Origin: Escherichia coli
GTDB lineage: Bacteria > Pseudomonadota > Gammaproteobacteria > Enterobacterales > Enterobacteriaceae
NCBI RefSeq assembly: GCF_003334765.1
Contig: NZ_QOWT01000039.1
Length of the DNA: 31,624 nt
Strand: one strand, 5' to 3'
The first letter of the stretch is position 1, and the number at the start of each line of letters is the position of its first letter. Shown in pieces: positions 4,184-17,354 of the stretch. The position numbers and the translations under genes were made by a program. The notes beneath the pieces were generated by a model, which was not told the DNA's origin, ran no database searches, and worked only from the letters and a program-made list of their open reading frames with translations.

Positions 4184-5683
4184 ATGCTACATTTGTTTGC
4201 TGGCCTGGATTTGCATACCGGGCTGTTATTATTGCTTGCACTGGCTTTTGTGCTGTTCTACGAAGCCATCAATGGTTTCCATGACACAGCCAACGCCGTG
4301 GCAACCGTTATCTATACCCGCGCGATGCGTTCTCAGCTCGCCGTGGTTATGGCGGCGGTATTCAACTTTTTGGGTGTTTTGCTGGGTGGTCTGAGTGTTG
4401 CCTATGCCATTGTGCATATGCTGCCGACGGATCTGCTGCTTAATATGGGATCGTCTCATGGCCTTGCCATGGTGTTCTCTATGTTGCTGGCGGCGATTAT
4501 CTGGAACCTGGGTACCTGGTACTTTGGTTTACCTGCATCCAGCTCTCATACGCTGATTGGCGCGATCATCGGGATTGGTTTAACCAATGCGTTGATGACC
4601 GGGACGTCAGTGGTGGATGCACTCAATATCCCGAAAGTATTAAGTATTTTCGGTTCTCTGATCGTTTCCCCTATTGTCGGCCTGGTGTTTGCTGGCGGTC
4701 TGATTTTCTTGCTGCGTCGCTACTGGAGCGGCACCAAGAAACGCGCCCGTATCCACCTGACCCCAGCGGAGCGTGAAAAGAAAGACGGCAAGAAAAAGCC
4801 GCCGTTCTGGACGCGTATTGCGCTGATCCTTTCCGCTATCGGCGTGGCGTTTTCGCACGGCGCGAACGATGGTCAGAAAGGCATTGGTCTGGTTATGTTG
4901 GTATTGATTGGCGTCGCGCCAGCAGGCTTCGTGGTGAACATGAATGCCACTGGCTACGAAATCACCCGTACCCGTGATGCCATCAACAACGTCGAAGCTT
5001 ACTTTGAGCAGCATCCTGCGCTGCTCAAACAGGCTACCGGTGCTGATCAGTTAGTACCGGCTCCGGAAGCTGGCGCAACGCAACCTGCGGAGTTCCACTG
5101 CCATCCGTCGAATACCATTAACGCGCTCAACCGCCTGAAAGGTATGTTGACCACCGATGTGGAAAGCTACGACAAGCTGTCGCTTGATCAACGTAGCCAG
5201 ATGCGCCGCATTATGCTGTGCGTTTCTGACACTATCGACAAAGTGGTGAAGATGCCTGGCGTGAGTGCTGACGATCAGCGCCTGTTGAAGAAACTGAAGT
5301 CCGACATGCTTAGCACCATCGAGTATGCACCGGTGTGGATCATCATGGCGGTCGCGCTGGCGTTAGGTATCGGTACGATGATTGGCTGGCGCCGTGTGGC
5401 AACGACTATCGGTGAGAAAATCGGTAAGAAAGGCATGACCTACGCTCAGGGGATGTCTGCCCAGATGACGGCGGCAGTGTCTATCGGCCTGGCGAGTTAT
5501 ACCGGGATGCCGGTTTCCACTACTCACGTACTCTCCTCTTCTGTCGCGGGGACGATGGTGGTAGATGGTGGCGGCTTACAGCGTAAAACCGTGACCAGCA
5601 TTCTGATGGCCTGGGTGTTTACCCTTCCGGCTGCGGTACTGCTTTCCGGCGGGCTGTACTGGCTCTCCTTGCAGTTCCTGTAA
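4184..5683 (+). CDS. pitA: Low-affinity inorganic phosphate transporter PitA (PiT family), 499 aa
   Basis: ORF 4184..5683 with ATG start. Polytopic membrane protein whose length and sequence match PitA as recalled. Confidence 0.93.
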
Positions 5684-5750
5684 TCGTACGCACCAAAACG
5701 AGCGGGTCAGCTGGCCCGCTTCAGATTGTGACATAGTGCGCTTTGTTCAT

Positions 5751-5849
5751 GCCGGATGCGGCGTGAACGCCTTATCCGGCCTACAAAAACATGCAAATTC
5801 AATAGATTGCAGAGATTATGTAGGCCTGATAAGCGTAGCGCATCAGGCA
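5751..5849. repeat. BIME / RIP-type element: two inverted REP sequences around a central spacer
   Basis: REP gccggatgcggcgtgaacgccttatccggcctaca (5751-5785) and inverted REP tgtaggcctgataagcgtagcgcatcaggca (5819-5849). Spacer contains ttcaatagattg, resembling an IHF site. Confidence 0.8.
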
Positions 5850-5870
5850 ATTTTGCGTTTGTAATCAGTC

Positions 5871-5903
5871 TCGAGCGGGTCAGTTTACTGGCCCGCTTTT
5901 TTT
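5871..5903 (+). terminator. Intrinsic terminator downstream of the pitA 3' REP region
   Basis: Hairpin gagcgggtcag...ctggcccgc followed by a T7 tract. A near-identical hairpin without a T tract lies at 5700-5721. Confidence 0.6.
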
Positions 5904-5926
5904 ATGCGTTATTATTGCTGAAGTGC

Positions 5927-6262
5927 TTAATGCCAAATCATCAATGCAATCAGGCTGACCACCACCAGACCACACAATGCGCTGGTCAGAATAAACTGCC
6001 GACGCACCCGCTCACAGCGGCGAATAAATTCATCATCGTGATGATCGCGATAACGTTGGGCATAGATATACCAAACGAGACGCACCTGTTTGTTGGGTTG
6101 GCCATGTGAGGTAAAAAAGCCCCCTCCATCAACATATTGATAGAGCAATGGATCGCAGTTACGCAGTACCACTAACAACGCGCGTAGTGATGAGAAATAG
6201 CGCGCCATGTTAACAATGCAAACGACACATAAAGCCCAAAATAATGCGACGGTGCTTATCAT
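5927..6262 (-). CDS. uspB: Universal stress protein B (UspB), 111 aa
   Basis: ORF 5927..6262. ATG at 6260-6262 (reverse strand) with GAGGAGGT SD. Small two-helix membrane protein of the known length. Confidence 0.92.
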
Positions 6263-6490
6263 ACCTCCTCCCCGGCGACCTGCCCGCGGAGTTCCACCCC
6301 GGGGCTACCGCTCCCGATACGCTGCCAATCAGTTAACACCAGGTCCTGGAGAAACCGCTTTTGTGGTGACCAACATACGAGCGGCTCTATAGATAGTGTA
6401 GGAGATCAGGTTGTTTTTTTTCCAGAAGGTTAACCACTATCAATATATTCATGTCGAAAATTTGTTTATCTAACGAGTAAGCAAGGCGGA

Positions 6491-7159: not shown

Positions 7160-7200
7160 GATCAGCGTAAACACCTTATCTGGCCTACGGTCTGCGTACG
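7160..7200. repeat. Degenerate REP-like element
   Basis: Sequence ...cgtaaacaccttatctggcctacgg... resembles the REP consensus seen at 5751 and 17254. Confidence 0.4.
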
Positions 7201-14603: not shown

Positions 14604-14687
14604 GTTAGATGATGGCTATCTCACTCCAGTCAGAGCCACCAACTCAGGGCTGGAAAGTAAAAAACCGACGCAAAGTCGGTTTTTTTA
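14604..14687 (+). ncRNA. agrA: AgrA small RNA (DinQ-associated antisense-type sRNA, paralog of AgrB)
   Basis: Putative promoter TTGCAA (14569-14574), 17 nt, TAGCAT. Ends at hairpin ccgacgcaaagtcgg plus T7 (14665-14687). Near-duplicate of the agrB module. 5' end is approximate. Confidence 0.7.
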
Positions 14688-14834
14688 CATCCGGATTCGG
14701 ACAAGGCTTAATATGACGATGACCCAGTGAAAGTATATAAATCGTCACTGCGATATATACCGAAGTGCTCCCTCCGCCAGCTGAAGAAATCGCTAATTCT
14801 TGCAATGTTAGCCACTGGCTAATAGTATTGAGCT

Positions 14835-14917
14835 GTTAGATAAGAACTCTCTCACTCCAGCCAGAGCCACCAACTCAGGGCTGGAAAGTAAAAAACCGAC
14901 GCAAAGTCGGTTTTTTT
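14835..14917 (+). ncRNA. agrB: AgrB small RNA (antitoxin sRNA complementary to the dinQ mRNA leader)
   Basis: Promoter TTGCAA (14800-14805), 17 nt, TAGTAT (14823-14828). Body tgttagataagaactctctcactccagccagagcc is near-identical to + strand 14403-14437 inside the dinQ transcript region, so it is complementary to dinQ mRNA. Ends at hairpin plus T7 (14895-14917). 5' end is approximate. Confidence 0.75.
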
Positions 14918-14999
14918 ACGTCCTGATTCAGACCTCCTTTCAAATGAATAGCCAACTCAAAATTCACACCTATTACCTTCCTCTGCACTTACACATTCG

Positions 15000-17253: not shown

Positions 17254-17354
17254 GTCGGATGCGACGCTGGCGCGTCTTATCCGACCTACAAAGTTATGAA
17301 AATTCGATGAATAGTATGTTATTTGTAGGCCTGACAGGCGTAGCGCATCAGGCG
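17254..17354. repeat. BIME / RIP-type element (two inverted REPs) downstream of arsC
   Basis: REP gtcggatgcgacgctggcgcgtcttatccgacctaca (17254-17290) and inverted REP tgtaggcctgacaggcgtagcgcatcaggcg (17324-17354). Spacer resembles that of the 5751-5849 element. Confidence 0.8.

Follow-up and report, generated by a model that had tools for sequence, protein, structure and literature searches.

Why should the spacer between the convergent genes pitA and uspB of Escherichia coli contain two nearly identical hairpins, one on either side of a pair of repetitive extragenic palindromic (REP) sequences? The question was raised by a 31,624-nt stretch of E. coli DNA (contig NZ_QOWT01000039.1; the whole stretch is called the window, and all positions are counted from its first letter). 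The original prediction, made from the letters of the sequence, had proposed either that a REP element landed inside a pre-existing terminator or that the hairpins form a two-step termination and mRNA-stabilizing structure. The evidence collected here makes it likely that a BIME-1, a bacterial interspersed mosaic element (BIME), was inserted at a terminator shared by pitA and uspB, that the whole stem-loop of this terminator was duplicated on insertion, and that the resulting footprint is a general one.

Positions 5560-6060 of the window (501 nt) are 100% identical to several K-12 genomes, and the DNA is that of E. coli K-12; window coordinates are obtained by subtracting 3,633,458 from those of NC_000913.3. 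The pitA-uspB spacer is 243 nt long. Its features, and the two genes which delimit it, are listed below, the REP types being named after Ton-Hoang et al. 2012 (PMC3333891).

4184 to 5683, + strand: pitA coding sequence, stop codon TAA at 5681-5683 (list of open reading frames and RefSeq annotation of the identical K-12 DNA)
5695 to 5698, - strand: AAAA on the + strand, the U tract of the minus-strand uspB terminator (Term-seq 3' end at 5696, terminator scan)
5699 to 5721: hairpin 1, the left one of the two target copies, CGAGCGGGTCAGCTGGCCCGCTT, which is without the loop TTTA
5722 to 5749: left outer arm of BIME-1, CAGATTGTGACATAGTGCGCTTTGTTCA, which matches the right arm as an imperfect inverted repeat
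5750 to 5784, + strand: Y-type REP (palindromic unit), TGCCGGATGCGGCGTGAACGCCTTATCCGGCCTAC
5785 to 5819: L spacer, with the integration host factor (IHF)-like site ATTCAATAGATTG at 5797-5809
5820 to 5849, - strand: Z1-type REP, inverted, GTAGGCCTGATAAGCGTAGCGCATCAGGCA on the + strand
5850 to 5871: right outer arm of BIME-1, ATTTTGCGTTTGTAATCAGTCT
5872 to 5898: hairpin 2, the right one of the two target copies, CGAGCGGGTCAGTTTACTGGCCCGCTT, the same as the single hairpin of empty alleles
5897 to 5903, + strand: T7 tract, with hairpin 2 the predicted intrinsic pitA terminator
5927 to 6262, - strand: uspB coding sequence, stop codon at 5927-5929, convergent with pitA

No repeat features are annotated in this region of the RefSeq MG1655 record, and a name for the element in EcoCyc, as REP or as RIP (repetitive IHF-binding palindromic element), was not confirmed. 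The list of open reading frames contains no transposase near BIME-1 in the window.

The two hairpins are copies, in direct orientation, of the unit CGAGCGGGTCAG-TTTA-CTGGCCCGCTT, found at 5699-5721 and at 5872-5898; they are identical, except that the left copy is without the 4-nt loop TTTA. Hairpin 1 has a stem formed by 5700-5708 and 5713-5721, with loop AGCT (predicted folding energy -15.8 kcal/mol, z = -3.3), while in hairpin 2 an 11-bp stem, 5873-5883 with 5888-5898, encloses the loop UUUA (-19.6 kcal/mol, z = -6.1). Their alignment score is 35, the maximum among 988 mismatched pairs of flanks being 24, and a chance likeness of the two hairpins was rejected on these figures. All parts described in the original prediction are thus present, namely two near-identical hairpins, the first without a T tract and the second with T7, around a REP pair. 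Two of its details had to be amended: the element had been placed at 5751-5849, which holds the inverted REP pair and falls short of the outer arms, reaching 5722 and about 5871-5874; and the lack of a T tract after hairpin 1 is true of the + strand, since on the minus strand this hairpin continues into CGUUUUGG and is terminator-like.

In the stem a T faces a G (GGGTCAG / CTGGCCC, window positions 5707/5714 and 5880/5891), a feature kept across most Enterobacteriaceae (loci L012-L085). It gives a G-U pair in the RNA of the pitA strand and a C-A mismatch in that of the uspB strand; this makes the shared hairpin stronger in the pitA sense, at -19.6 kcal/mol, the value for uspB being -13.9 kcal/mol.

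If the second hairpin arrived together with the element, loci free of the element should carry only one. The full region is found in 1,940 of 5,426 complete E. coli genomes (36%), whereas in the rest (64%) it is 173 nt shorter, and the extra 173 nt of the filled allele correspond to one more hairpin copy plus 150 nt. The empty alleles, such as those of AR_0374, O157:H7 FRIK2533 and APEC E19019, read CACCAAAACGAGCGGGTCAGTTTACTGGCCCGCTTTTTTTATG, a single hairpin with an A tract on its left and a T tract on its right. Spacers were also fetched from 80 species representatives, and those short enough were read: the same single-hairpin unit, e.g. AAAACGGGTCAGGAAACTGGCCCGTTTTTTT, is present in about 70 of them, from Klebsiella, Raoultella, Citrobacter, Kluyvera, Enterobacter, Lelliottia, Kosakonia, Phytobacter, Trabulsiella and Salmonella. 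In no case, over about 70 other species and some 3,500 genomes of E. coli, were two hairpins found without this BIME-1. Even in C. amalonaticus, C. sedlakii and S. enterica arizonae and diarizonae, where other REP pairs lie between the pitA stop and the terminator, there is still one hairpin. A look-up by exact UspB sequence returned only two E. coli alleles and no additional outgroups. Orthologues free of REPs but carrying both hairpins would have contradicted the prediction of an insertion into a pre-existing terminator; the REP-free loci of Enterobacteriaceae have one hairpin, only the element-bearing ones have two, and that prediction holds. The single hairpin is the ancestral bidirectional terminator of pitA and uspB, as judged from its sequence and conservation. 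Its interpretation as an excision scar of the kind left in Pseudomonas by REPINs (REP doublets forming hairpins) was rejected, because the hairpin and its A and T tracts are conserved in genera which do not have the element at this place.

Most other genera have GAAA as the terminator loop (L007-L085), which on flipping would give TTTC; Escherichia has TTTA or TTTT, and in E. albertii (L006) TAAA in the left copy goes with TTTA in the right one. The pattern looks like repeated flipping of the loop alone. In Raoultella ornithinolytica, several Enterobacter and others (L016, L023, L025, L046, L059, L073, L080, L082), the spacer measures 626-1,003 nt and presumably holds an extra gene or element.

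The filled state is shared by three lineages, all of them with two hairpins: the filled allele of E. coli, Escherichia sp. MOD1-EC7003, whose locus is 97.6% identical to the window, and E. albertii, whose type strain carries BIME-1 between two hairpins at this very position, with 92% identity between the locus and the window. Compared with each other, the E. albertii and E. coli elements show 92.2% identity, a value which equals the divergence of the flanks, whereas paralogues reach at best 90.3% (mean 83%). Because this identity exceeds that of any paralogue, the elements of the two species are probably the same old insertion; a separate insertion into the same hairpin in E. albertii is a possible alternative. 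Within E. coli, empty and filled alleles lie on flanks which differ at 1 of 564 sites. Either both alleles have been retained and shuffled by recombination, or the element has been precisely lost between the hairpin copies; whichever account of the polymorphism holds, the two-hairpin state is derived from the one-hairpin state together with the element.

What lies between the hairpins is not an arbitrary segment. The 150-nt block 5722-5871 is a full-length BIME-1, with a Y REP and a Z1 REP in inverted orientation, both of which align to the consensus of 30 BIME-1 sites. Metagenome contigs were scanned by pattern, and 109 usable BIME-1 copies from about 30 distinct genomic sites were obtained. 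Their consensus unit is 154 nt long and is composed of tcAgATTGnTGACAAaGTGCGC, the Y REP, AAATTCAATAtATTGCA, the Z1 REP and TTTTgCgTTTGtCAtCAgtCTca; the window copy follows it over its full length. Conservation drops sharply beyond both ends of the consensus, and these edges are exactly at the pitA-uspB junctions. The consensus closes with ...CAGTCTCRA, and because this end shares 3 nt with the start of hairpin copy 2, the junction can be placed only to within 2-3 nt. The ends form imperfect terminal inverted repeats of about 16 nt, TCAGATTGnTGACAAA and, as reverse complement, TGAGACTGATGACAAA, which match at about 13 of 16 positions as counted by eye. We take the outer arms to correspond to the motifs called "A" and "B" when BIMEs were first named.

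That the flanks of the REP pair might be unique sequence carried from a donor locus was considered and rejected, as they are conserved outer arms of the element. In the 5,426 complete E. coli genomes the median number of places per genome is 5 for the left outer arm, at 84-100% identity, and 2 for the right one; the other arm matches adjoin intergenic REP pairs, at sbp-pfkA, mgtA-ridA, rlmC-artJ, fepA-entD, barA-gudD and chbG. The element in the window is extragenic and in single copy, between the convergent stops of pitA (5683) and uspB (5927), at the 3' end of transcription units. Its L spacer carries a putative IHF site, ATTCAATAGATTG, with one mismatch to the IHF consensus WATCAANNNNTTR; the spacer core AAATTCAATAtATTGCA is conserved in the 30-site consensus, Rfam family ES036 matches 5787-5827 (42 bits, gathering score 37.6), and the L linker of the BIME-1 family binds IHF (PMC3333891).

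Some variants of the element were noted. In the filled allele of E. coli 08_4358 (L005), GTAGATCCTG replaces GTAGGCCTG in the Z1 REP, so that a GATC site is gained and the REP stem is disrupted. Upstream of chbG in E. coli S40 (L089), IS621, of the IS110 family, lies within the left half of BIME-1, a position which fits the known targeting of REPs by IS621. Elsewhere in the window, REP-like matches to GCCTTATCCGGCC, with 2 mismatches each, are found at 7173-7185, just downstream of uspA, and at 17274-17286. The other Rfam matches above gathering score, two AgrB (14605-14688 and 14836-14919), ES205 (24354-24425) and GadY (30204-30317), are unrelated.

The footprint is not confined to pitA-uspB. 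For 32 site clusters, which stand for about 30 separate sites, the 75 nt flanking BIME-1 on its left were aligned with the 75 nt flanking it on its right, every mismatched pair of loci serving as null. Flank similarity is above the 99th percentile of the null in 10 of the 32 clusters and above the 95th in 12 (Mann-Whitney p = 8e-4). The flanking repeats are 18-29 nt long, adjoin both element ends at constant offsets and have a different sequence at each locus, as shown by the pairs AAATGCCGGATTTTGTATCCGGCATTT / AAATAGCGGATTTTATATCCGACATTT at tsx-yajD, ACGGGTGGCGTTGCCACCCG / ACGGGTGGTGTTACCACCCG at ysgA-metE, GCGGCGCAATTGCGCCGCCT / GCGGCGCAGTTACGCCGCCT at chbG and TAAACTGGGCACGATAGCCCCGATT / TAATCCGGGCATGATAGCCCGGATT at mgtA-ridA. 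Among the 11 repeats scoring at least 18, 10 fold into a GC-rich stem-loop, and direct alignment beats inverted alignment in 9 (p = 0.019). A stable hairpin abuts one or both ends at 22 of 30 sites. Empty alleles could again be compared at three other sites with polymorphism, tsx-yajD, ysgA-metE, which is empty in every E. coli genome, and mscS-fbaA, filled in 3,720 genomes: they contain exactly one hairpin each, and the filled alleles two. At mgtA-ridA and barA-gudD, where BIME-1 is nearly fixed in E. coli, no empty alleles were found. The footprint can also be seen to decay, since the tsx-yajD locus of K-12 (L216) has lost the right outer arm and the right hairpin copy by a deletion of about 40 nt, relative to the filled metagenome allele.

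The consequences for termination follow from what adjoins each hairpin. The arrangement of an intrinsic terminator, in which a U tract directly follows a GC-rich stem-loop, is that of hairpin 2 when the + strand is read and of hairpin 1 when the minus strand is read. On the opposite strands, hairpin 1 is followed by CAGATTG, without a U tract for pitA, and hairpin 2 by CGAGACUG, again without a U tract. Hairpin 2 with its T7 tract is the sole terminator-like site of the + strand within 5400-6400. On the uspB side the 3' end has been mapped: Term-seq of MG1655 reports a strong minus-strand end at 3639154, with 130,524 and 25,150 reads in two of three growth conditions and a flanking sequence which finishes ...CCCGCTCGTTT (Adams et al. 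2021, PMC7815308, supplementary file 1). This is window position 5696, the third U after hairpin 1, so that hairpin 1 is the uspB terminator, by Term-seq and by sequence, and uspB transcripts cross the complement of hairpin 2 and the whole BIME-1 before ending there. Hairpin 2 with T7 is the predicted terminator of pitA, and hairpin 1 should not stop pitA transcription, because CAGAUUG follows it on the + strand. The two-step termination of pitA, put forward in the original prediction, is therefore not borne out: on the strand of pitA no U tract follows hairpin 1, and the end mapped at this place belongs to uspB, on the opposite strand.

The insertion has thus split one bidirectional terminator into two unidirectional ones, 173 nt apart, the pitA side being predicted. 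Compared with the empty allele, the 3' untranslated regions (UTRs) of both genes have gained 173 nt in the filled one. With the predicted pitA end, the transcripts of the filled allele overlap over about 208 nt (5696-5903), as against about 40 nt in the empty allele.

Two further signals were noted in the same data set. A minus-strand Term-seq end at window position 6275 (NC_000913.3 3639733), 13 nt upstream of the uspB start, has 109,975 and 42,672 reads, is classed as 'orphan / upstream ORF' (open reading frame) and lies in a very GC-rich stretch (6262-6330); in the leader of uspB, transcripts could be terminated prematurely or processed at this point. Within pitA and antisense to it, a region of Rho termination at NC_000913.3 3638792 on the minus strand (window position about 5334; Adams et al., PMC7815308, supplementary file 2) is downstream of the uspB terminator and suggests that some uspB read-through is stopped by Rho.

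A likely course of events, consistent with these observations, can be proposed. The ancestral spacer would have held a shared bidirectional terminator, in which a GC-rich stem-loop stood between an A tract and a T tract. A complete BIME-1 of about 154 nt would have integrated at the foot of the stem-loop, in an early lineage of Escherichia, and the whole stem-loop (23-27 nt) would have been duplicated in the manner of a target site, one copy per side. The A tract would have remained beside the left copy, the T tract beside the right one, each copy becoming a one-way terminator; pitA transcripts would then pass hairpin 1 and BIME-1 and end at hairpin 2 with T7. As for the chemistry, the most likely mechanism appears to be a pair of staggered nicks at the base of a hairpin or cruciform which has been extruded, with fill-in afterwards: the terminator would extrude as a cruciform, a nick would be made in each strand, at the same foot of the hairpin which that strand forms, the element would be joined to the staggered ends, and fill-in would copy the hairpin on both sides. 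Because the length of the duplication varies and equals that of the stem-loop, the cuts would be placed by DNA structure and not by the fixed stagger of an enzyme. The recurrence of the footprint at many BIME-1 sites implies integration at stem-loops. A wider proposal, which we put forward tentatively and hold to be less probable than its contrary, is that BIME-1 is a present or recent mobile element, similar to the miniature inverted-repeat transposable elements (MITEs) and specific to extruded stem-loops, mostly intrinsic terminators, with a structure-set duplication of 18-29 nt and with the splitting of terminators as a routine outcome.

Paired hairpins around an element might also arise by fold-back (snap-back) template switching, in which BIME-1 would have come to lie beside the hairpin and a nascent strand would have copied the hairpin across the element, leaving a second copy which is inverted and looks direct. 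Segment 5695-5903 is indeed predicted to fold as one long imperfect palindrome (-108 kcal/mol, z = -9.8), hairpin 1 is able to pair with hairpin 2 (inverted repeat I1), and in E. albertii the left loop, TAAA, is the reverse complement of the right one, TTTA. An inverted copy would, however, reverse the asymmetry of the stem, and the T of the 5' arm and the G of the 3' arm run in the same direction in both copies; asymmetric loops have likewise the same orientation in both flanking copies at L105, L107, L108 and L126, the direct alignment is the better one in most of the loci tested, as given above, and in palindromes the loop by itself is often flipped secondarily. Fold-back is accordingly regarded as improbable. 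A hardly different, slightly lower probability is given to the view that the hairpins resemble each other through their function in pitA or uspB mRNA, as a selected two-stage terminator or mRNA stabilizer, and not through insertion. Both copies remain foldable, compensatory changes are seen elsewhere (e.g. GGTGGCGTTGCCACC and GGTGGTGTTACCACC at ysgA-metE), hairpin 1 is in use as a terminator, and REPs are reported to stabilize upstream mRNA and to attenuate transcription (PMC3333891; bioRxiv 10.64898/2026.03.23.713779). Yet one hairpin suffices in the 64% of E. coli genomes with the empty allele and in every other genus, hairpin 1 is without a U tract on the pitA strand, and selection leaves unexplained both a dispersed repeat with sharp ends and the same footprint at unrelated loci; use after insertion is compatible with the insertion and does not replace it.

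The filled allele could, finally, have arrived by homologous recombination with foreign DNA, the duplication having been made once elsewhere by an unrelated tandem duplication. Its patchy occurrence (E. albertii, MOD1-EC7003 and a third of E. coli), on flanks near-identical to those of the empty allele, fits a spread of this kind. Recombination accounts for how the allele spread and not for its origin, and the same architecture recurs at independent loci with different hairpins, so that this is the least probable of the explanations considered.

Insertion with duplication of the stem-loop, which we prefer, has to be set against several facts. The insertion event was not observed and no enzyme is tied to the integration; the usual suspect, TnpA_REP, also called REP-associated tyrosine transposase (RAYT), is a Y1 transposase of the IS200/IS605 type, which makes no target duplication (PMC3333891). 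On the present model some other activity would take part, or TnpA_REP would behave differently when its substrate is a cruciform. The duplication is not pristine, as the left copy is loopless in E. coli and, in E. albertii, keeps the 4-nt loop in flipped form (TAAA in place of TTTA); loop flip and loop deletion are secondary changes of a kind common in palindromes. Many empty E. coli alleles could be secondary deletions and not never-occupied sites, since flanks so nearly identical may point to precise losses. The sites were sampled by one metagenome pattern scan, not by a full census, and a recognizable duplication was found at only about one third of them; the others may be old and decayed, or may reflect a different mode of integration. 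On the pitA side the 3' end is a prediction: the Term-seq lists of PMC7815308 contain no + strand end near either hairpin, and no pitA or uspB 3' ends were found in the supplements of PMC9023263, PMC6061677, PMC12207403 and the SMRT-Cappable-seq study PMC6131387.

Taken alone, the pitA-uspB locus is a modest result, a known K-12 repeat element with a clear history. Its wider interest comes from the spread of REPs and BIMEs, a question since the 1980s about repeats which make up about 1% of the E. coli genome, and one still called unresolved in papers from 2011 to 2026 (PMC3116915, PMC8266576, bioRxiv 10.64898/2026.03.23.713779). A footprint made of sharp ends, terminal inverted repeats and a duplicated host stem-loop, single at empty sites, gives a testable prediction on target and chemistry. 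If true, stem-loop integration would be a mode distinct from the duplication-free single-strand mechanism assumed for REPs and REPINs, and it would offer a concrete substrate for tests in vivo and in vitro. The regulatory consequence is that a shared terminator becomes two one-way terminators, with longer 3' UTRs and greater transcript overlap, at a locus polymorphic within E. coli. Sharp ends with terminal inverted repeats, a direct duplication of stem-loop size and the splitting of bidirectional terminators were not found described in the searchable literature; the older studies on the presence and absence of BIME-1 are outside it, and a prior description is possible.

In comparison with known systems, the element itself does not differ from the BIME-1, also known as RIP or RIB, of the literature: a Y REP and an inverted Z1 REP, a long L linker with an IHF site, an extragenic position at 3' ends of transcription units and all-or-none presence are shared (PMC3333891, PMC1187871), and the layout Y-L-Z1 is the published definition of BIME-1 (PMC3333891). 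Its presence or absence among isolates is given as already known in the passage of PMC1187871 which cites Bachellier et al. 1997. The empty allele, conserved from Escherichia to Kosakonia, is a textbook case of a bidirectional intrinsic terminator between convergent genes; the filled allele differs in having the two directions on separate copies.

REPINs, associated with RAYT (TnpA_REP), have the same REP doublet as mobile unit, present or absent between strains (PMC3116915, PMC8266576), and a doublet in inverted orientation is what is found here. The single-strand chemistry of the IS200/IS605 type, however, gives no target duplication, while a duplication of 23-27 nt is seen at pitA-uspB and of 18-29 nt in 10-12 of the 32 clusters. 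This argues against such chemistry for BIME-1, a participation of TnpA_REP being still allowed. Excision of Pseudomonas REPINs leaves a palindrome made of element sequence (PMC3337134), whereas the hairpin of the empty site described here is a host terminator, conserved across genera.

Landing on an intergenic DNA stem-loop is shared with IS1397/ISKpn1 and with IS621/IS110, which insert into REPs, and class C group II introns insert after intrinsic terminators, the stem-loop being their landing site. These elements insert beside or inside the hairpin and duplicate nothing or 3-4 bp; we know of none which duplicates a whole hairpin.

The MITEs, such as ERIC, Correia/NEMIS and RUP, are likewise small, non-coding and foldable, with terminal inverted repeats and flanking direct repeats, and Correia elements also bear an IHF site (PMC3184786). 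A 2011 review described REPs as lacking the signatures of MITEs or transposable elements (PMC3184786). In BIME-1, terminal inverted repeats are present, and a target-site duplication, with one copy at the empty site, is found at pitA-uspB, tsx-yajD, ysgA-metE and mscS-fbaA, so that the element has the formal marks of a MITE. The length of the duplication is atypical: in MITEs it is short and fixed by the transposase (e.g. TA or 2-9 bp), whereas in BIME-1 it extends over 18-29 nt and tracks the size of the stem-loop.

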